Part shown: positions 29,405 through 51,136 of the stretch, piece after piece | How positions within the stretch are numbered: the first letter of the stretch is position 1 | Layout of the letters: every line of letters begins with the position of its first letter | DNA from: an uncultured bacterium | Lineage (GTDB): Bacteria; Patescibacteriota; Minisyncoccia; Phycocordibacterales; GWA1-40-21 | Reading direction: 5' to 3' | Length of the DNA stretch: 51,136 bases | NCBI GenBank assembly: GCA_903831595.1 | Contig: CAIKXY010000010.1 | Location: forward strand, 1-51,136 | Notes under the pieces: model-generated | Told to the model about the DNA's origin: nothing | The model's database searches: none | The model's input: only the letters and a program-made list of their open reading frames with translations | Made by a program: the position numbers and the translations under genes

Positions 29405-29896
29405 ATGATGAAAAAAAATCTAAAAAAAGGGTCAGGTCTAGTTGAGATATTAGTTGCTGTTTTTATTTTTTCTATAATTTTAGGTGCATTGATTAATGCT
29501 AGTAGTGCTTATTTTTCAGGCGCTGGAGTAAACTTATCCTCCACTAAGGCGGCATACCTTGCGGAAGAAGGTATTGAAGCGGTAAAAACAATTAGAGATT
29601 TTGGCTGGAATAATATAAGTGCTTTATCAGATAATACTGATTATTATTTGTATTTTGACACATCTTCATCAACAAATAATGTCTGGAAAGCCACGACAAC
29701 ACCGTCAATTATTGATTCTAATTTTATTAGAACTTTTAAAATTAATTCCGTATATAGAGACATAGACGGAAGAATAATTTTAAGTGGAGGGACTCTTGAT
29801 ATAAATACTAGAAAAGTTATTTCATCCGTTTCTTGGAAATCAAATAATTCTACAACAACAAAAAGCCTTTCGACTTATATAACAAATATTTTTTAA
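29405..29896 (+). CDS. pilin-like protein (minor pilin candidate)
   Basis: KKG|SGLVEILVAVFIFSIIL: a prepilin-like N-terminus with Glu+5. Confidence 0.65.
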   Translation: MMKKNLKKGSGLVEILVAVFIFSIILGALINASSAYFSGAGVNLSSTKAAYLAEEGIEAVKTIRDFGWNNISALSDNTDYYLYFDTSSSTNNVWKATTTPSIIDSNFIRTFKINSVYRDIDGRIILSGGTLDINTRKVISSVSWKSNNSTTTKSLSTYITNIF

Positions 29897-30414
29897 TGTT
29901 AAAAAAAATAAAACAACAAAAAATACAGGGATTCACGCTAGTAGAAATGATGATATACCTTGCACTCATGACTGTGATTGCTGTCGTTATTGTTCAGTCA
30001 ATAGTTGTTGTTCTGAAGTCAAATCGAAAAGGCTTTGCTGAAAGCAATCTTAGAAATACTGCCTATTCGGCTCTTGAAGGGATGGTTCGAGAGATACACG
30101 CCTCAGATAGTACTATTATTGCTAGTGGCAGTTTATTACAATTAAATCAAAGCAATCCTATTGCCAATGTCGTCCAATTTTCTACGTCATCTGACGCAAG
30201 ACTAAATATGTATGAGGGGGGGAGTACATCAACATTATCTTATTTTGGACCACTAATCTCAAAAGATGTGATTGTAAAAAATTTAATCTTTACAAATATA
30301 AATACTGGTAAATCACAAGCGGTAAGAATACAGATTAATTTAACAACGGCTGTTGATGGTCAAACAAAAAGTGAGTGGTTTTATGATACTGCCATACTAA
30401 AAGGGTCATACTAA
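29896..30414 (+). CDS. prepilin-type N-terminal cleavage/methylation domain protein (minor pilin candidate)
   Basis: KIQG|FTLVEMMIYLALMTVIAV. Confidence 0.75.
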   Translation: MLKKIKQQKIQGFTLVEMMIYLALMTVIAVVIVQSIVVVLKSNRKGFAESNLRNTAYSALEGMVREIHASDSTIIASGSLLQLNQSNPIANVVQFSTSSDARLNMYEGGSTSTLSYFGPLISKDVIVKNLIFTNINTGKSQAVRIQINLTTAVDGQTKSEWFYDTAILKGSY

Positions 30415-34440: not shown

Positions 34441-34848
34441 AGTATTAGTATAAAAATACATGAGCGATATTTTAAATTTTACAAATTTGATAGCTTACCA
34501 AAAAGCTCATACATTAGTACTTGAAATTTATAAAATTACCAGCAAATTTCCTAAAACTGAGCAATTCTGTTTGGTAAACCAGATAAGAAGAGCTGGAATT
34601 TCTGTTACGTCAAATATTGCCGAAGGTTTTGCCCGCATGACCGCCAAAGACAAAATTCATTTTTATGGAATGTCTCGCGGATCACTTTTAGAATTACAAA
34701 GTCAAATATTTATTGGAAAAGATTTAAATTATTTGTCAACAGAAGATTATAAAAATACTGAAGAAAAAATCACGGAGGTAAATAAATTACTTTTAGGTAT
34801 AATTAAATCAGCAAAAAATTACTAATACTAATACTTTATACTAATACT
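34441..34848. repeat. 14-bp perfect inverted repeat bracketing the four-helix-bundle gene
   Basis: agtattagtataaa (34441-34454) and tttatactaatact (34835-34848), embedded in AGTAT(A/T)AGTAT word repeats. Confidence 0.7.
34460..34825 (+). CDS. four-helix-bundle protein (23S rRNA intervening-sequence protein / Avd-like family)
   Basis: 121 aa. AYQKAHTLVLEIYKITSKFPKTEQFCLVNQIRRAGISVTSNIAEGFAR...FYGMSRGSLLELQSQ is the family signature. Confidence 0.85.
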   Translation: MSDILNFTNLIAYQKAHTLVLEIYKITSKFPKTEQFCLVNQIRRAGISVTSNIAEGFARMTAKDKIHFYGMSRGSLLELQSQIFIGKDLNYLSTEDYKNTEEKITEVNKLLLGIIKSAKNY

Positions 34849-35684: not shown

Positions 35685-35713
35685 TTGACACGCGAGCCCA
35701 AAGGGTGTATAAT
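35685..35713 (+). promoter_or_regulatory. consensus sigma70 promoter for DGR-1 target gene
   Basis: TTGACA (35685-35690), a 17-nt spacer, then TATAAT (35708-35713). Confidence 0.6.
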
Positions 35714-35758
35714 TGTGGCTAGTAATAAATAGGTTCTTTTATAAACTAAATTGAAAAA

Positions 35759-35811
35759 ATAGTCATAGCCAAAAGCTCCTAATTTTTTTGGAAACTTTTG
35801 GCTATGACTAT
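35759..35811 (+). promoter_or_regulatory. 17-bp perfect hairpin in the 5' leader of the DGR-1 target gene
   Basis: atagtcatagccaaaag (35759-35775) pairs with cttttggctatgactat (35795-35811). Confidence 0.5.
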
Positions 35812-35877
35812 CAATATCCACGATACGTCAAGAGTAATTCAGCCTGTCTTATGACAGACAAAAGGGAGGATTTGACC

Positions 35878-36489
35878 ATGGATAACATGCTCAAAAAAGC
35901 ACTTCGCGATTATCGCGAACTGCGCGAACAGTTTGAAAACGTATTGTTAGGCGAAGAAAGCGAACTTTGGGAGAGAGAAGCGAGAAAGTTTCTCTCAAAA
36001 CGCCCCTGCTGGAATCAGAAAGAAAATAGCTACCTGAAGCTAATTTCTGATGGCAAAAAAGTTGTTATTGCTTCAACAGACGGCAAGGAAACTATCGCCA
36101 ATGCTCAGAAAATTTTTCCGAGCGGTATAGATTCTGATTTCAAAAACTGGAATCTCGATGTGCCGAGTACACCGACCAAGGAAACAAAAACGCAAGTTTT
36201 TGAGATGGTCAAGGACGGCATGTTCAAGGATATCTTCGGAAGTTTTGGAGAAAACTTGGACCGTCTGTGCTTCACGCAAAGCCAAATCATCTTTTTTGTG
36301 AAAAACCACGCTAAGTGGCTTCGCACTGGTGGCTATGGAACCTTCTTTCTCTTTAAAGTCGGGAAGGATTATTTCGTGGCGAACGTGTACTTGAACTCTG
36401 ATGGGCTTTACGTGTACGTGGATCGCTTCTCGTGTGGCTACGTCTGGTGTGCTGAGTACAGGCGTCGGATTGTTGTCCCACAACTGTAA
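35878..36489 (+). CDS. DGR-1 variable (target) protein
   Basis: The preferred start is ATG 35878, preceded by AAGGGAGGA. The ORF-track TTG 35788 lies inside the leader hairpin. The C-terminal approximately 38 codons are VR1. No signal peptide. Confidence 0.85.
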   Translation: MDNMLKKALRDYRELREQFENVLLGEESELWEREARKFLSKRPCWNQKENSYLKLISDGKKVVIASTDGKETIANAQKIFPSGIDSDFKNWNLDVPSTPTKETKTQVFEMVKDGMFKDIFGSFGENLDRLCFTQSQIIFFVKNHAKWLRTGGYGTFFLFKVGKDYFVANVYLNSDGLYVYVDRFSCGYVWCAEYRRRIVVPQL

Positions 36490-36496
36490 TTTTTTC
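36368..36496 (+). repeat. DGR-1 variable repeat (VR1) including IMH-like 3' end
   Basis: Ungapped alignment to TR1 (offset 458). In 36368-36479 there are 13 mismatches, all at TR adenines. Confidence 0.9.
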
Positions 36497-36531
36497 ACTT
36501 AGTTTTTTTGTCCCTTTGAAACTTGGACACT

Positions 36532-36578
36532 TTGACCCTCTGAAATCCGTAAGGAAAGTAAGGGGGTCAATTTTTTTG
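36532..36578 (+). terminator. hairpin plus T-run downstream of VR1 (terminator and/or DGR target-recognition hairpin)
   Basis: ttgaccctc (36532-36540) pairs with gggggtcaa (36562-36570). The loop contains tcc-gtaa-gga, and ttttttt follows. Confidence 0.55.
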
Positions 36579-36735
36579 TTTTAATTTGTATTTTTGTATA
36601 TAATAAAAACGCAATTATAAGCGTTTTCGGCTATGGCTTAAGACTACAATTGTATATCTATATTATTTTAGAGTTTTACCGGATATGTCTTGTAAAAGAG
36701 TGAATGGTATAAATATCTTATAAAAATAAATAAAG

Positions 36736-36764
36736 TTGGTGTAGTATTTTAGAGGACTTATAAG
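36736..36764 (+). promoter_or_regulatory. candidate promoter of the TR1 RNA
   Basis: TTGGTG (36736-36741), a 17-nt spacer, then TATAAG (36759-36764). The -10 element ends 62 nt before TR1, the same distance as at DGR-2. Confidence 0.4.
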
Positions 36765-36825
36765 TCCCGCATAAGATACAATCTGTCATGGTTTGGCGGA
36801 TGGTGATATGGGAGAAATATTGCAC

Positions 36826-36954
36826 ATAATTTCGTGGCGAACGTGAACTTGAACTCTGATGGGCTTAACGTGAACGTGAATCGCTTCTCGAATGACAACG
36901 TCTGGAATGCTGAGAACAGGCATCGGATTGTTGTCCCGAAACTAAAATATTTTC
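36826..36954 (+). repeat. DGR-1 template repeat (TR1)
   Basis: Asn-codon-rich (AAC/AAT) invariant copy of VR1. It is translated as a spurious ORF in the track (MANVNLNSDGLNVNVNRFSNDNVWNAENRHRIVVP). Confidence 0.9.
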
Positions 36955-36980
36955 TCCCGCTTATTTGGCGGGAGTTTTTT
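36954..36980 (+). terminator. hairpin plus U-run immediately 3' of TR1
   Basis: ctcccgc-ttatttg-gcgggag followed by tttttt. The avd stop codon (complement of tta 36961-36963) lies in the loop. Confidence 0.55.
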
Positions 36981-37260
36981 GTTGTAAACCTTTTTTCCAT
37001 CCACCGAGCATTCTTCCAATTTCTTCTAATTTTTCAGACAACTCAATATATTTTTCATTTGGTATCAATTTACTTTCCCATGCAAGTTGGGAGAAGAATT
37101 TTAGAGTATCTAATTTTGTTATTGTTTTTCCTAGTAGTATAATCTTTGATTCAGGAGGTAAATATACTGATGCAAAACTAAATTCTAGAATATCTAAAAA
37201 TGAACTCTCTATCTTTTGTCCAATACCAAAGCGTTCAGTTTTAGGAAAATTTCTGTGCAA
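36961..37260 (-). CDS. avd: DGR accessory variability determinant (Avd-like four-helix-bundle protein), 5' end ambiguous
   Basis: FPKTERFGIGQKIE...KLDTLK...EIGRMLGGW resembles Avd/IVS four-helix-bundle proteins. The TTG start at 37260 truncates helix 1, and the frame stays open upstream to the G10 tract. ATG 37345 would be in frame if the tract were one base shorter. Confidence 0.8.
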   Translation of the reverse strand: MHRNFPKTERFGIGQKIESSFLDILEFSFASVYLPPESKIILLGKTITKLDTLKFFSQLAWESKLIPNEKYIELSEKLEEIGRMLGGWKKGLQQKTPAK

Positions 37261-37319
37261 ATTTAGCCAAAATTGATAAGCATCTTTTTCTTTTGATATT
37301 ACAACGGGCGATTTCTGTA

Positions 37320-37329
37320 GGGGGGGGGG
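37320..37329. repeat. G10 homopolymer between/within the avd 5' end and RT upstream region (DGR-1)
   Basis: Direct reading: ttctgta + G10 + tcac. Confidence 0.95.
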
Positions 37330-37355
37330 TCACTTTATAGTTCATATAATTTATT

Positions 37356-38339
37356 ATGGAAATTAATTTTAATACTTACGATACTATCATATCTCTAAAA
37401 AATATTCACGAAGCTTGGCGTGAATTTATTTCTGACAAAAGATATAAAAATGATGTTGCCGAATATGCGCTTGCTCTTTCAAATAATATATCTAACTTAC
37501 ACCATGATTTGAAAAATAAAACATATATTCATTTTGGATATAAAGCTTTTTCTATTAATGACCCAAAACCAAGAAATATTCATAAAGCAATTGTGCGTGA
37601 TCGATTATTACACCATGCGATTTATAGGATTCTTTACCCTTATTTTGATAAAAAATTCATACACGATTCATACTCATGTAGAAATTTTAAAGGCACACAT
37701 AAAGCATGTAATCGTTTTAGAGATTTTGCGAGAAAAGTATCAAAAAATCACAGTAGAACATGCTGGGTTTTAAAATGTGATATAAGAAAGTTTTTTGCTT
37801 CTATAGACCATCTTATTTTGCTGAATATTTTAAAAAGACATATTTTTGATGTTGATACTCTATGGCTTTTAGAAAAAGTCATAGAAAGTTTTAGTAGCAC
37901 TCAAAAAGGAAAAGGCTTGCCTCTTGGGAATCTGACATCACAACTTTTGGTAAATATTTATATGAACGAGTTTGACCAATATATAAAACATACTCTTAAA
38001 ATAAAATATTATATTCGATATGCCGATGATTTTTTGGTATTAAGTGATAAAAAAGAAGAGTTGAAATCTTTGCTCGTTTTAATAGATACATTTTTAAAAG
38101 AAAGGCTTGCTTTATTACTGCATCCAAATAAAGTATTTATAAAAACATTTGCTTCCGGGGTTGATTTTCTCGGTTGGGTGAATTTTTCTGACCATAGAGT
38201 TTTGAGGACAGCCACAAAAAGAAAAATGTTTAGAAAATTAAAGGAAAGTAACAAAAAAGAAACCATTCAGTCGTATTTGGGTATGTTAAAACATGGAAAT
38301 GGTTTTAAACTTAGAAATAGAGTAACCAATTTTTTGTAA
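37356..38339 (+). CDS. DGR-type reverse transcriptase
   Basis: 327 aa with RT motifs including LPLGNLTSQLLVNIYMNEFD (the DGR-typical SQ motif) and IRYADDFLVL (YxDD). Confidence 0.95.
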   Translation: MEINFNTYDTIISLKNIHEAWREFISDKRYKNDVAEYALALSNNISNLHHDLKNKTYIHFGYKAFSINDPKPRNIHKAIVRDRLLHHAIYRILYPYFDKKFIHDSYSCRNFKGTHKACNRFRDFARKVSKNHSRTCWVLKCDIRKFFASIDHLILLNILKRHIFDVDTLWLLEKVIESFSSTQKGKGLPLGNLTSQLLVNIYMNEFDQYIKHTLKIKYYIRYADDFLVLSDKKEELKSLLVLIDTFLKERLALLLHPNKVFIKTFASGVDFLGWVNFSDHRVLRTATKRKMFRKLKESNKKETIQSYLGMLKHGNGFKLRNRVTNFL

Positions 38340-47151: not shown

Positions 47152-48975
47152 ATGGAAAACCTCGACTTCCTCAAAAATAAATACAATCTACACAATACAG
47201 AAGAAGTAGAAAAAGCAGCAAAACGCACAGAAAAGCGCACTGGAGAAAAAGTGCCACAAAATCCAAAAGATCAGATACAAAACTACCTAGACAGATTCAC
47301 CGAAATTATTGAAAGAAAGGAACCAGGGAAAAGAGAAAGGGGAATAGAAGCTATAAAAAGTGTTATAGATGACAAGTACATTATTAAACCTGAAGAAATT
47401 CCAGAAAGCTATTATGAAAACCAAAGGCGAATCGCTCGTGAACAAGGCCATGGAGATGTTGAAATAACCGATGAGGCAAGAAATCAACTCAAAGAAGTCA
47501 TAATAAAAGATCAAAAAGATTCTCTAGACAACTGGATTGACTACCTATCATCAAAAGATGCCACATATCCAGACTGGCTCAAGTATTTTGCTATTAGAAA
47601 TCTTCTCGGAATGGGAGAATATGATAAAGAAAAGAAACAATTCACTAAAAGATCAAAAGGCACAGTAAAGCCATTCCCAGACATAAACAGAGAAGCATTA
47701 GCATATGTACTAGATGCAATAGAGAAGAAACATAAAGGAATACCAAACGATAAAGACCCAGAATTCCAGGCTCTTCTACGAGGAGAAAATTTTGCTAAAC
47801 TCTATGCATGGGCTATAGACAAAGCTACACCAGAATCGGAGAAAGGACTTACAAACATAAAGGGTGAATGGGTAAAGTATAGACAAGGCAAAGACCACAT
47901 GCCACTCGTAGAATCTTTGCAAGGTCATGGAACAGGATGGTGCACAGCAGGAGAGTCAACAGCAAAAGCTCAACTGGAAGGCGGTGACTTCTATGTATAT
48001 TATTCAGAAGATAAAAATGGAAAATCAAATGTTCCAAGAGCTGCTATTCGTATGCAAGGAAATGAAATAGGTGAAGTCAGAGGTATAGGAGCAGACCAAA
48101 ACCTAGACCCATACATTGGTGATGTAGTAAAAAAGAAACTTACAGAATTTCCAGATGGAGACAAATACAAAAAGAAAGAAGCTAATATGAAACTTCTTAC
48201 TCAAATAGATAACAAAACAAAACTAAAACAACCTCTTATAAAAGATGAACTCATTTTTCTATATGAAGTAAACACTGAAATCGAAGGCTTTGGATATCAA
48301 AGAGATCCTCGCATAAAAGAAATAATCGACCAAAGAAATCCAAAAGAAGATGCACCTATAGTTTTTGATTGTCAGCCAAATCAAATCGCATATTCTGAGA
48401 AAAAAATAAATAAAGATACAAAAGCTTATGTTGGACCTCTATTCAAGGGAATATTCCAAACAAACATTGACCATATAGGAACTTCTTTCCCAGAGGGAAT
48501 GTTGAAAAAGATGGAAGCTGAAATTGGTGGAAAAAATAAAAAAGAACTCGAGAAAGAACTAAAGGAAAATAAAGTTTGGATTTCGGATTATGCTAAAAGC
48601 ATGATGAACAATTCTGATTTCACTACATCAAAAAAATTAGAACAATTAAATCTCGCTCGTATCACTGTAAAATCTCTCGGTTTTCCAAATGGCGCCACAA
48701 CTGATGAAATATACAAAAAAGCGGAAGAACTTGGTTTAGAATTATGTCCAGCAGAAGTCGGTCCCCAGCTTCGTTTGCAGTATTTGGACCAGCCAAATGG
48801 AGAATATATTTTTATAGGAATGAAACAAATTTCTGACTCCGTTGGCTACCCGAGCGTGTTCAATGTGCTCCGCTACGACGATGGCAGGCTGGAGCTCGAC
48901 GGCCGCAGCGCTAAGCCTGACGATAGGTGGGGTGGCGGCCGCGGGTTTGTGTTCCGCATGCCTCGCAAGTCTTAG
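47152..48975 (+). CDS. DGR-2 variable (target) protein
   Basis: 607 aa with no signal peptide. The C-terminal approximately 47 codons are VR2. The last ~100 aa resemble the C-terminus of the DGR-1 target. Confidence 0.85.
   Translation: [607 protein letters not shown]
48829..48968 (+). repeat. DGR-2 variable repeat (VR2)
   Basis: Ungapped alignment to TR2 (offset 446). There are 22 mismatches, all at TR adenines. The invariant 3' block is gtttgtgttccgcatgcctcgcaa. Confidence 0.9.
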
Positions 48976-49185
48976 AACTTATCTCTTTTATAACTTAGCT
49001 CTAGCACTTAGATACTTAGAACTTTGTTCTTGAAAATTTTTTGATATAATAATTTTGGTAGTAGGTGAATATGCGAGAGATTACGATTTCTCGCTACCGA
49101 ATCCAGTATCCATAAGTTGAGAATGTTTGTGATTATGATTTCAAACAGAGGGCTTATGTAGACGCTTCAATAAAAATGAAGATAC

Positions 49186-49213
49186 TTGGTGCAAAATATT
49201 ATGGCATTATTAT
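49186..49213 (+). promoter_or_regulatory. candidate promoter of the TR2 RNA
   Basis: TTGGTG (49186-49191), a 16-nt spacer, then TATTAT (49208-49213). The -10 element ends 62 nt before TR2. Confidence 0.4.
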
Positions 49214-49274
49214 GCCAAATTAGATTCAATCCCGAGAGCATTCAAGGGGTGGTGGTAAAGAAGATATTTTGCAC

Positions 49275-49414
49275 ATTTCTGACTCCGATGGCAACCCGAA
49301 CGTGTTCAATGTGAACCGCAACGACGATGGCAAGCTGAAGCTCAACGACAACAACGCTAAGCCTGACAATAGGTGGAATGACAACAACGAGTTTGTGTTC
49401 CGCATGCCTCGCAA
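49275..49414 (+). repeat. DGR-2 template repeat (TR2)
   Basis: AAC/AAT-rich copy of VR2, seen in the track as the spurious ORF ...SDSDGNPNVFNVNRNDDGKLKLNDNNAKPDNRWNDNNEFVFRMPR. Confidence 0.9.
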
Positions 49415-49426
49415 CTCTTTTCATTT

Positions 49427-49457
49427 CTCTCCCATTTATTTGGGAGAGTTTTGTTTT
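49427..49457 (+). terminator. hairpin plus U-run immediately 3' of TR2
   Basis: ctctccca-tttatt-tgggagag followed by ttttgtttt. It is homologous in position and shape to 36954-36980. Confidence 0.55.
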
Positions 49458-49775
49458 CCCCCACACCTTTCATTTTATCCTCTCAAATCATATAATGATG
49501 GTTATGTTTTATCTCTATATATTGAAAAGCACTAAGGATGATAATTTGTATATAGGCTCTACAAATGATTTGAGACGAAGACTTTCTGAACATAGTAATG
49601 GAAAAGTACGTTCAACAAAATCTCGTGTCCCATTTGAACTTAGATATTACGAATCATTTTTCAAAGAGATAGACGCAAGGAAAAGAGAGTTTTCGCTTAA
49701 AAAAGATGGTAAAGCACTCGGACAATTGAAAAGAAGAATTTCAGAAAGTCTTAAATAAAATGAAAGGTGTGGGGG
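49458..49775 (+). mobile_element. 318-bp TIR-bounded element encoding a small GIY-YIG protein, inserted in DGR-2
   Basis: 21-bp perfect terminal inverted repeats (49458-49478 cccccacacctttcattttat / 49755-49775). They are flanked by 9-bp direct repeats, ttttgtttt (49449-49457) and ttttgtctt (49776-49784). The element is absent at the homologous DGR-1 site. Confidence 0.75.
49495..49758 (+). CDS. GIY-YIG nuclease family protein (small UPF0213/YhbQ-like)
   Basis: MMVMFYLYILKS...NLYIGSTNDLRRRLSEH...YYESF...KREFSLKK shows GIY-YIG motif spacing. It is about 87 aa, and the stop codon lies within the right TIR. Confidence 0.8.
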   Translation: MMVMFYLYILKSTKDDNLYIGSTNDLRRRLSEHSNGKVRSTKSRVPFELRYYESFFKEIDARKREFSLKKDGKALGQLKRRISESLK

Positions 49776-50110
49776 TTTTGTCTTAATATCTGCCCATTCC
49801 AACCACCTAGCATTTTTCCAATTTCATCTAAATGGAGAGATAAAGCGATATACTTTTTATTATCCAAAGATTTTGTTTCCCACAAAACCATAAGCAAGAT
49901 TTTCAATGTGTCTAATTTTCTGATGGCAACAGATATATAAGTTCTTTTTTCTTCTTTTGGCAGGAAACTTGCTACAGAAATTGCTTCTATGATTTCTATA
50001 AATAATGTGTCAATTCTATTTCCTAGAGAATATCTATGTGGTTTGGGCAGAATTTGATAATATTCATACCAAAGAATATAAGCAGTTTTTACTTTCTGTA
50101 AAAGTGGCAA
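49751..50110 (-). CDS. avd: DGR accessory variability determinant (Avd-like), 5' end ambiguous
   Basis: Paralog of 36961..37260 (…RKLDTLKILL…EIGKMLGGW…). It has a TTG start in the track. The frame continues through the G9 tract, and upstream ATGs (50136, 50139, 50145) are out of frame by one base. Confidence 0.8.
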   Translation of the reverse strand: MPLLQKVKTAYILWYEYYQILPKPHRYSLGNRIDTLFIEIIEAISVASFLPKEEKRTYISVAIRKLDTLKILLMVLWETKSLDNKKYIALSLHLDEIGKMLGGWNGQILRQNPHTFHFI

Positions 50111-50123
50111 AAGTTTCTGTAGA

Positions 50124-50132
50124 GGGGGGGGG
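50124..50132. repeat. G9 homopolymer at the avd 5' end / RT upstream region (DGR-2)
   Basis: Direct reading: ttctgtaga + G9 + tcat. Confidence 0.95.
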
Positions 50133-50168
50133 TCATCATAGTCATGTTTTTTGTGTTGTAATTATATT

Positions 50169-51136
50169 ATGTTTAAAATTCAATTCATTAATAAATATAA
50201 AGATATCATTGAAATGGAAAATCTCCTAGAAGCGTGGAGAGAATTTGTTGTAGGTAAAAAATTAAGAAAGGATGTGGAAGATTTTCAAAGACATTTAATG
50301 AATAATATTATTTCACTTCATAAAGATTTAGAGACAAAAACATATAAACATTCTTCCTATGAGGCATTTAATATTTCCGACCCAAAACCAAGAAATATAC
50401 ATAAAGCAAAAGTGAGAGATAGACTGCTACATCATGCTTTATACAGGAAACTTTATCCGTTTTTTGATAAAACATTCATAGCTGATTCGTATTCTTGCAG
50501 GGTCGGAAAGGGAACTCATAAAGCGTTGGAGAGATTTAAGTCTTTTTCAAATAAAGTATCAAAAAATAATACAAAAACGGTTTGGATTTTGAAATGTGAT
50601 ATCAGAAAGTTTTTTGCTTCAATAGACCAAGAAGTTTTGTTGAGAATATTGAATAGTTATATACCAGATAAAGATATTATATCTATTTTATCTGAAATTA
50701 TTGGTAGTTTTTATTCCACTGAAAAAGGTAAAGGTTTGCCTCTTGGAAATCTAACGTCACAACTTTTGGTAAATATTTATATGAACGAATTTGACCAATT
50801 TGTAAAACACAAACTAAAAGCAAAATATTATATACGATATGCAGATGATTTTGTGATTTTTTCTGAGAATAAAAATAAATTAGAAGACTTACTCTTATGT
50901 ATAAGAGTGTTTCTTTGTGAAAAATTAAAATTAGAATTGCATCCAAATAAAGTTTTTATAAAAACTCTGGCCTCGGGCGTTGATTTTCTTGGTTGGGTGA
51001 ATTTTTCTGACCATAGAGTTTTGAGAACAACTACAAAAAGAAAAATGTTTAGAAATATAAAAATGAAAGAAGGAAAAATAGAGACGGTTCAATCATATCT
51101 TGGGTTGTTGAGCCATGGGAATGCTCAAAAATTGAG
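50169..51136 (+). CDS. DGR-type reverse transcriptase, 3' end outside window
   Basis: Open frame from ATG 50169 to the window edge. The translation MFKIQFINKYKDIIEMENLLEAWREF...LPLGNLTSQLLVNIYMNEFDQF...IRYADDFVIF is highly similar to RT 37356..38339. It is missing from the ORF track because no stop codon lies in the window. Confidence 0.9.
   Translation, partial: MFKIQFINKYKDIIEMENLLEAWREFVVGKKLRKDVEDFQRHLMNNIISLHKDLETKTYKHSSYEAFNISDPKPRNIHKAKVRDRLLHHALYRKLYPFFDKTFIADSYSCRVGKGTHKALERFKSFSNKVSKNNTKTVWILKCDIRKFFASIDQEVLLRILNSYIPDKDIISILSEIIGSFYSTEKGKGLPLGNLTSQLLVNIYMNEFDQFVKHKLKAKYYIRYADDFVIFSENKNKLEDLLLCIRVFLCEKLKLELHPNKVFIKTLASGVDFLGWVNFSDHRVLRTTTKRKMFRNIKMKEGKIETVQSYLGLLSHGNAQKL

Follow-up and report, generated by a model that had tools for sequence, protein, structure and literature searches.

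In the diversity-generating retroelement (DGR) of Bordetella phage BPP-1 the components follow the order mtd-avd-TR-brt, i.e. target, accessory gene, template repeat (TR) and reverse transcriptase (RT). Prototype DGRs have been studied with constitutive or overexpressed components, and to our knowledge the means by which cells limit or time DGR mutagenesis are largely unknown. Phase variation at poly-G/C simple-sequence-repeat contingency loci occurs in Campylobacter, Neisseria and Haemophilus. Here we analyze DGR-1, an element at positions 35685-38339 of a 51,136-nt stretch of DNA (GenBank: CAIKXY010000010.1, positions 1-51,136, assembly GCA_903831595.1, forward strand; "the window" below is this whole stretch) from an uncultured member of the Patescibacteriota, or candidate phyla radiation (CPR). 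DGR-1 departs from described DGRs by two features, a conserved, length-unstable repeat in avd and a target scaffold without recognisable relatives; stripped of the repeat tract, it would be just another DGR of the CPR type. Our literature search found no earlier report of a homopolymer, slipped-strand or phase-variable feature in DGRs.

CPR DGRs have been surveyed by Wu et al. 2018 (PMC5758913). In the available text of that paper a layout termed "B3", whose order and orientation of avd and TR are unlike those of the prototype, accounts for 90% of CPR DGRs, many CPR classes of variable repeat (VR) have no fold assignment (UVR1-6 or ungrouped), and a separate study of CPR/DPANN DGRs is referred to; the same text makes no mention of a repeat tract in avd or of its polymorphism. 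As far as B3 is described there, it appears to be the layout of DGR-1, and the two share host lineage, cassette layout and targets without recognisable domains, with no essential difference in the cassette. Since this layout has already been described as typical of CPR, the DGR-1 cassette is an ordinary member of a known clade. With BPP-1 it has in common a homologous RT with the I/LGxxxSQ and Y[AM]DD motifs, Avd, adenine changes in AAY codons, a VR at the 3' end of the target gene, an IMH/IMH*-type boundary (IMH, initiation of mutagenic homing) and a stem-loop directly 3' of TR. Unlike BPP-1, which is phage-borne, DGR-1 is chromosomal; its order is target-TR-avd-RT with avd inverted and spacer RNA antisense to avd, its target is not recognisably of the C-type lectin fold, a homopolymer interrupts the 5' end of avd, and the upstream:downstream "cPRT Stop" duplex is not demonstrated.

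The DGR-1 cassette and its relatives

VR1, the mutagenised recipient repeat (36368-36479, + strand), aligns with the template repeat TR1 (36826-36954, + strand), in which positions 36826-36937 pair with the mutagenised VR and 36938-36954 form an IMH*-like tail. Machine alignment yielded zero gaps and 13 mismatches, in agreement with the hand count of a first-pass annotation made from the letters alone. TR1 has an A at each mismatch, replaced in VR1 by T at eight sites and by G at five; the strict adenine specificity claimed for 36368-36479 is therefore borne out, with no non-adenine TR site among the 13 (hypergeometric p=2e-9, given 29 A in the 112 nt of TR1). All 13 sites occupy codon position 1 or 2 of the target coding sequence (35878..36489). 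Read in the VR frame, TR1 contains 11 AAY codons and translates as NFVANVNLNSDGLNVNVNRFSNDNVWNAENRHRIVVPKL, versus YFVANVYLNSDGLYVYVDRFSCGYVWCAEYRRRIVVPQL for VR1. No further copy of TR1 and no remote VR for it were found within the window.

The last mutagenised site of VR1 is 36464. It is followed by an IMH-like 3' boundary (36465-36496, + strand) comprising a 15-nt block identical to TR (36465-36479) and then VR/TR differences at 36480-36481, 36486-36487 and 36491. The extension of homology to 36496/36954 and the non-adenine mismatch at 36480 (A in VR, G in TR), both described in the first-pass annotation, were recovered; four further tail mismatches, at 36481, 36486, 36487 and 36491, with A in TR at all of them, had been missed, as had the fact that the differences beyond 36479 are fixed rather than mutagenic. 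The mismatch at 36480 is synonymous (a Pro codon, CCA in VR vs CCG in TR), is shared by few relatives and sits just beyond the segment homogenised by retrohoming. Among 73 relatives, identity between VR and TR is 93% or more across the 8 nt preceding the boundary; past it TR reads CGAAACT and VR reads CGCAACT, and the A>C difference at 36481, which matches the conserved PQL C-terminus of the target family, is fixed in 47 of the 73 and not randomised. This family-wide fixed difference supports the IMH/IMH*-type boundary that had been proposed. The first 14 bp of the BPP-1 IMH are GC-rich, whereas the identical block of DGR-1 is not.

The RT gene (37356-38339, + strand, 327 aa) is an intact open reading frame (ORF) that matches RVT_1 at 1e-25 and holds, as reported earlier, the GNLTSQ (here LPLGNLTSQ) and YADD motifs. 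Its best match in PDB is 8ub7_A (E=4e-38, residues 6-308), a chain (aligned IPIGSLTSQLFANVY ... YMDDIVVLGD) that we take from its sequence to be the bRT of Bordetella phage BPP-1, and whose IGSLTSQ aligns with LGNLTSQ of our RT. The gap to the other solved RT homologs is 20 orders of magnitude: group II intron RTs reach E=1.7e-18 at best, and chains deposited as retron-type RT E=6e-18. None of the NCBIfam models for group II, retron or defense-associated (DRT) reverse transcriptases reaches its cut-off on this protein. Sequence comparison thus places the RT in the DGR clade, as neither a group II nor a retron enzyme; the affiliation with those types that would speak against a DGR was not seen, the bRT-like 8ub7_A being far closer.

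A scan of one genome per species identified 79 loci, all in metagenome-assembled genomes of Patescibacteria (Paceibacteria, Moranbacteria, Zambryskibacteria, Uhrbacteria and others), of which about 45 exhibit the layout target(+)-TR(+)-avd(-)-RT(+). Metagenomes scanned with the RT added 80 more loci, and in 71 of the 71 usable ones avd is inverted immediately upstream of the RT gene. In the 90 loci with a detectable pair, 1505 of 1579 VR/TR mismatches (95%) are at TR adenines, the median offset from VR to TR is 443 nt, and TR ends a median of 25 nt before the avd stop codon.

The adenine pattern, the bRT-like RT, an Avd homolog, the IMH/IMH*-like boundary and a stem-loop after TR support the earlier interpretation of the locus as a DGR. 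DGR-1 has almost certainly diversified VR1, and a chromosomal element of the Patescibacteria (CPR) type is very probably the explanation of its core. According to the mechanism we propose, a predicted + strand RNA would comprise a structured leader, TR1 and the stem-loop right 3' of TR1; the bRT-like RT together with Avd would reverse-transcribe this RNA, misincorporating opposite template adenines, and the cDNA would replace VR1, with the IMH-like block 36465-36479 as the 3' limit. Up to 11 AAY codons and other A-containing codons would thereby be recoded in the last 40 residues of the 203-aa, cytoplasmic-looking target, where the recoded residues would form a beta-meander on a compact alpha/beta domain without a recognisable homolog.

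The repeat tract in avd

The avd gene (36961-37345, - strand) is located between TR and the RT gene and is antisense to both. Its conserved ATG (37345) lies 10 nt from the divergent start codon of the RT. Five codons past this ATG starts a homopolymer (37320-37329; G10 on the strand shown, C10 on the avd strand) that encodes PPP near the Avd N-terminus and is a candidate slipped-strand switch; the Avd body follows, from 37319 down to the stop codon at 36961. As assembled, the ATG and the body are out of frame, the avd frame has a TGA directly 5' of the C-run, no canonical in-frame start is present between the tract and Avd helix 1, and avd1 cannot yield a full-length protein. The called ORF (36961..37260, 99 aa) scores 47.1 bits with Pfam bAvd (cut-off 40) and is devoid of profile positions 1-18, while deletion of one C in silico gives a 127-aa Avd that covers positions 3-104 of the NCBIfam Avd profile. 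Thus the first-pass annotation was right that an Avd homolog is present, while its description of the cassette as complete needs a qualifier, since the ATG is out of frame through C10; both the antisense orientation and the interruption had been overlooked. Genetic code 25 or 4, with TGA as a sense codon, was considered as a means of opening the avd frame and rejected: long ORFs are intact under table 11, TGA ends only 2 of 45 ORFs, and under a TGA-sense code the avd frame would still hold no ATG.

The window is 33.5% GC and contains only three G/C runs of at least 7 nt. The second is a G9 at the equivalent place (50124-50132) in another element of the window, DGR-2, likewise out of frame with its ATG; the third is a G7 at 30216-30222, inside ORF 29896..30414. 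Among 109 non-redundant relatives from two independent collections, 92 have a G-run of at least 7 at the 5' end of avd (mode G10, range 7-12). Relatives lacking the tract often carry other repeats instead: (GA)n in L038, L086 and L133, (GT)n in L096, (CT)n in L128 and (GGC)n in L144. G/C runs of at least 8 nt number 96 at the avd-RT junction and 7 elsewhere in 1.02 Mb of related loci. The position of the tract is fixed to avd (standard deviation 3.4 nt to Avd residue 20) and not to the RT (standard deviation 13.7 nt), and its spacing from the ATG ranges from 3 to 39 nt across relatives. The tract always reads CCC codons for PPP, even in AT-rich genomes (33-41% GC), and a conserved R-x-x-P-V-V-I-L-K follows it in the avd frame across divergent DNA. 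A role of the G-run as a Shine-Dalgarno sequence for the RT was ruled out, its distance to the RT ATG varying from 6 to 55 nt.

For the frame census we took the 79 elements with one unambiguous open upstream ATG. The tract leaves avd in frame in 14 (18%), has one C too many in 43 (54%) and sets the third frame in 22 (28%), which departs from a uniform distribution (chi-square p=2e-4). In one subgroup (L002, L028, L044, L082, L099, L101, L119 and others) a stable hairpin abuts the tract, e.g. GAGAAGCACCtttGGTGCTTCTC-G12; on the avd mRNA it is a stem-loop right after the C-run, formed by the R-E-A-P-K-V-L-L codons. Such a hairpin may stimulate slippage or frameshifting; the two DGRs of the window lack a strong version of it. 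We also observed assembly breaks near the tract: the avd-RT region contains N-gaps in L017 and L058, and in L081, the closest relative by RT (80% aa identity), the contig ends in C16, 30 nt upstream of the RT start. These breaks are consistent with sequence that is hard to assemble or heterogeneous.

Comparison of nearly identical relatives reveals that the tract is a second hypervariable site beside VR in this clade. Across 2401 nt, L135 and L136 can be told apart only by 15 VR sites, of which 14 fall on TR adenines, by a single-nucleotide polymorphism and by the tract, G10 vs G8; in L137 the tract is G6AG4, and in L139 it is G10 and the VR differs. Tracts of G10, G8 or G6AG4 occur between flanks that match perfectly over 800 nt, and G10 or G9 between flanks that are 99% identical. 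L082 and L094, 99.2% identical over 4037 nt, have 16 VR differences, 16 of 16 at TR adenines, and G10 vs G9. Because these pairs differ at VR sites corresponding to TR adenines, they are direct evidence that relatives of DGR-1 diversify VR in nature. As the tract length differs between otherwise identical DNAs, DNA-level change certainly occurs, and the relatives thereby show the hallmark of a contingency locus. Further likenesses to contingency loci are the 8-12-nt G/C homopolymer in a 5' coding region, of a kind scarcely met in the rest of the genome, the coexistence of in-frame and out-of-frame alleles, and the presence of other repeats at the homologous position. Unlike the contingency loci named above, which gate surface or restriction-modification genes, the tract of avd would gate a component of a targeted mutagenesis machine; in-frame alleles are in the minority, and reversible switching within a clone and an effect on expression are, for avd, predictions.

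We propose that the C10 run in avd could act as a slipped-strand contingency switch. With the assembled C10 the ATG is one nucleotide out of frame, so that Avd and mutagenic retrohoming would be OFF, and C9 or C12 would restore the frame. That the tract is a heritable ON/OFF switch on Avd we regard as evenly balanced between true and false; it is favoured because the repeat as such is conserved, because other repeat types substitute for it, and because of its DNA-level polymorphism and its coding position. We favour OFF as the common state: most cells would be Avd-OFF, and rare slippage variants would turn the retroelement on. The transcripts, any present activity of the DGR-1 copy and the control of Avd output by tract length are likewise inferred. 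The broader proposal, i.e. that hypermutation is gated ON/OFF stochastically and heritably across the whole clade by the avd repeat, and that it acts on a target scaffold neither C-type lectin nor Ig, is put forward tentatively, as falling a little short of an even chance.

Several observations weigh against the switch or against the DGR model on which it is built. Only one contig identical to DGR-1 was found when strain variants were sought, hence neither VR nor tract-length variation is seen for DGR-1 itself. Homopolymer length in short-read metagenome assemblies carries some error. In-frame tracts are a minority of the 79 censused elements and fit OFF-by-default and programmed +1 recoding equally; given the excess of the "+1" frame state, the main rival remains programmed frameshifting or slippage during transcription. 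A start codon (GTG, TTG or ATG) that closely follows the tract in the avd frame, present in 61 of 94 elements and also in DGR-2, could allow Avd to be made independently of the tract. The NCBIfam model DivGenRetAVD reaches 60-64 bits, under its 80-bit cut-off. Lastly, a cPRT-Stop-like duplex is unsupported across 77 loci, where 61% of positions pair vs 60% with permuted partners.

The main rival holds that the C-run is a recoding site, at which programmed +1 ribosomal frameshifting on CCC-C or slippage of RNA polymerase would deliver, from the out-of-frame ATG, a low, roughly constant dose of Avd at any DNA length. CCC-C is a +1-prone site (by proline-codon slippage in the course of poly-proline stalling), and long homopolymers promote transcriptional slippage. 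The commonest frame state needs exactly the +1 shift, is found across many ATG-to-tract spacings, and occurs in a clade in which a stable hairpin abuts the tract in many members. Against this, the remaining wrong frame accounts for 28% of the elements and the correct frame for 18%, some relatives have in place of the C-run dinucleotide repeats unfit for slippage of tRNA-Pro, in DGR-1 neither a zero-frame stop nor a rare codon directly follows the run, and tract length is seen to change at the DNA level between otherwise identical sequences. We therefore consider recoding rather unlikely.

Compared with the switch, a role of the tract in expression of the RT or in transcription is improbable. 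The tract would then be a spacer of variable length or a 5'-UTR (untranslated region) element of the divergent RT and avd promoters, comparable to phase-variable repeats located in promoters, and Avd would start at a downstream GTG or TTG. The back-to-back start codons of avd and RT, the tract lying 6-55 nt upstream of the latter, agree with such an arrangement, as do the canonical in-frame starts counted above and a TTG-started Avd2 that covers the whole Avd profile; the alternative repeat types would suit this role too. What argues for a coding tract is its placement relative to avd and not to the RT, the conservation of R-x-x-P-V-V-I-L-K as protein in the avd frame, the conserved ATG a few codons upstream, and, in DGR-1, the lack of any downstream start that would preserve helix 1.

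The frame disruption in avd1 could also mean that DGR-1 is decaying or dead, with avd a pseudogene and the VR/TR pattern a fossil, served in trans by DGR-2 or another element or by none. The existence of a second DGR 12 kb away, with an RT gene 73% identical, would fit this, as does the failure of avd1 as assembled to give a full-length protein. Decay is nevertheless quite improbable: the RT ORF is intact, TR, IMH and RNA hairpins are conserved, the sole lesion is at the hypermutable tract and most relatives are in a like state, including the avd of DGR-2 with respect to its own ATG. Moreover, L136, with its out-of-frame G8, still differs in VR from L135 at 14 TR-adenine sites, and TR2 of DGR-2 has no similarity to VR1. 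Finally, homopolymers are error-prone and three related assemblies break beside the tract, yet it is very improbable that its length is mis-assembled and the run merely encodes three or four prolines in frame, given that a second, independent ENA assembly (ERZ27229613 k141_240424) is identical with the same G10, that the tract recurs across many studies and assembly naming styles, that 82% out-of-frame is far above plausible error, and that the exclusive use of CCC in genomes of low GC content and the dinucleotide replacements argue for selection on the DNA repeat itself.

Target protein, RNA elements and DGR-2

The target gene (35878-36489, + strand) encodes 203 aa; its start codon was fixed from a GGGAGG 8 nt upstream and from homologs that begin with MDxMLRKALR. 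A promoter-like site (35685-35713, + strand; TTGACA-17-TATAAT) agrees with the consensus at 12 of 12 positions, from which its function is suggested. In the 165-nt leader between this promoter and the start codon we found an inverted repeat (35759-35811) with 24-nt arms, 88% complementary, and a 5-nt loop; since a T-run lies past it on the minus strand, antisense transcription coming from avd could end there.

In AlphaFold2 models of the target, built with 50-66 homologs, a helical hairpin at the N-terminus precedes a compact alpha/beta domain (residues ~50-203); VR makes up the final 40 residues of this domain, in its last three or four strands. The predicted local distance difference test score (pLDDT) is 92 for the whole target and 96.7 for residues 50-203, with a predicted template modelling score (pTM) of 0.92. 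Hypervariable columns of the target family coincide with the positions of VR1 mismatches. Neither Pfam nor NCBIfam matches the target, Pfam matches none of 66 family members, and the family profile has no match among PDB sequences. A Foldseek search with the full and the domain model returned nothing significant in PDB (best E=0.39) or in the BFVD viral library, and C-type lectin chains match the target model at TM 0.28-0.36 only. In the absence of a significant fold match the target is not filed under the C-type lectin fold; as modelled, it would display its VR on neither a C-type lectin nor a formylglycine-generating enzyme (FGE)-sulfatase-like fold, and a very divergent lectin-like topology is possible. 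No signal peptide is evident from reading the target sequence.

The target has ~138 homologs, and those with a named source are from Patescibacteria, except for one labelled Flavobacterium sp., which is probably mis-binned. In ~30 genomes (L014, L021, L026, L029, L036, L037 and about 25 other loci) a target homolog has neither RT nor avd nor TR within 5 kb, and several loci (L002, L004, L020, L045) possess two copies. Remote or orphan DGR targets may belong to this family.

Downstream of the target stop codon, a 10-bp hairpin followed by a T-run (36532-36570, + strand; RNA fold of -23.7 kcal/mol for 36490-36600) is likely a terminator and possibly the counterpart of the post-IMH inverted repeat. 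The alignment of relatives reveals another conserved hairpin, ATCTGTCA...TGGCGGAT (36781-36801, + strand), ~25-45 nt upstream of TR1 and followed by a near-invariant GGTG. Compensatory changes among relatives (ATCCC/GGGAT, GCTCT/AGAGC, ACTCC/GGAGT) suggest that it plays a role in the DGR RNA.

Directly 3' of TR there is an 8-bp stem-loop, CTCCCGC...GCGGGAG, with U-rich sequence (36954-36974, + strand), which overlaps the avd stop codon on the other strand. A cryo-EM preprint on the bRT-Avd-RNA complex describes an Avd-binding stem-loop directly 3' of the BPP-1 TR and reports it in 207 of 278 DGRs; the DGR-1 stem-loop matches this element in position and size and is a putative Avd-binding element. 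RNAalifold on a MAFFT alignment of TR and flanks recovered only 4 bp of the hairpin, with the loops misaligned, so that we resorted to per-sequence folding, which detects it in 90 of the 92 elements, at a median of -15 kcal/mol vs -7 for shuffles. Four predicted pairs of the stem keep pairing despite two-sided changes in 2, 21, 8 and 23 of 86 sequences.

The window also contains a candidate for a cPRT-Stop-like duplex, a 13-nt complementarity with one mismatch, GGTTTGGCGGATGG vs CCATCCACCGAGC, which looks attractive in L001 too. With avd in the opposite orientation, the RNA that follows TR is antisense to the 3' end of this gene, and conservation in part of the downstream strand of the duplex is explained by the Avd "GGW" codons, whose reverse complement is the near-invariant CCAnCCnCC 3' of TR. 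No Rfam family was found in the region.

DGR-2 (47152-51136, + strand with avd2 on the - strand) has the layout of DGR-1 and runs off the end of the window. Its target gene (47152-48975, + strand) encodes 607 aa without a Pfam match. VR2 (48826-48973) and TR2 (49272-49419) differ by 22 TR-adenine mismatches and one non-A mismatch at 48969/49415, and a stem-loop is present after TR2. The avd2 gene (49751-50110, - strand) encodes a protein 40% identical to Avd of DGR-1, and the gene of RT2 (+ strand) extends from about 50170 past the window end. The distance from the TR stem-loop to the avd stop codon is only ~25 nt in DGR-1 and most relatives; in DGR-2 a small gene for a GIY-YIG nuclease (49495-49758, + strand; Pfam GIY-YIG E=1e-15) is inserted in this spacer, separating the TR2 stem-loop from the avd2 stop, and looks like a mobile or homing-type insertion. 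A further gene of the Avd superfamily, predicted to encode a four-helix bundle, is located at 34460-34825 (+ strand), 1 kb upstream of the DGR-1 target (Pfam 23S_rRNA_IVP E=3e-37); its product scores 34.8 bits with bAvd, under the cut-off, and is 26% identical to Avd1.

Implications for Patescibacteria

Gene callers truncate or miss avd in elements of this kind: only a 99-aa fragment is called in DGR-1, and many relatives have no in-frame start. With the target family, the list of proteins that tolerate massive variation gains a scaffold that is confidently modelled and has no known homologs. If the tract acts as proposed, a repeat in the accessory gene would be a simple, testable mechanism for bet-hedging on mutagenesis, which would apply to organisms with unusually abundant DGRs and could be checked in existing metagenomic reads.

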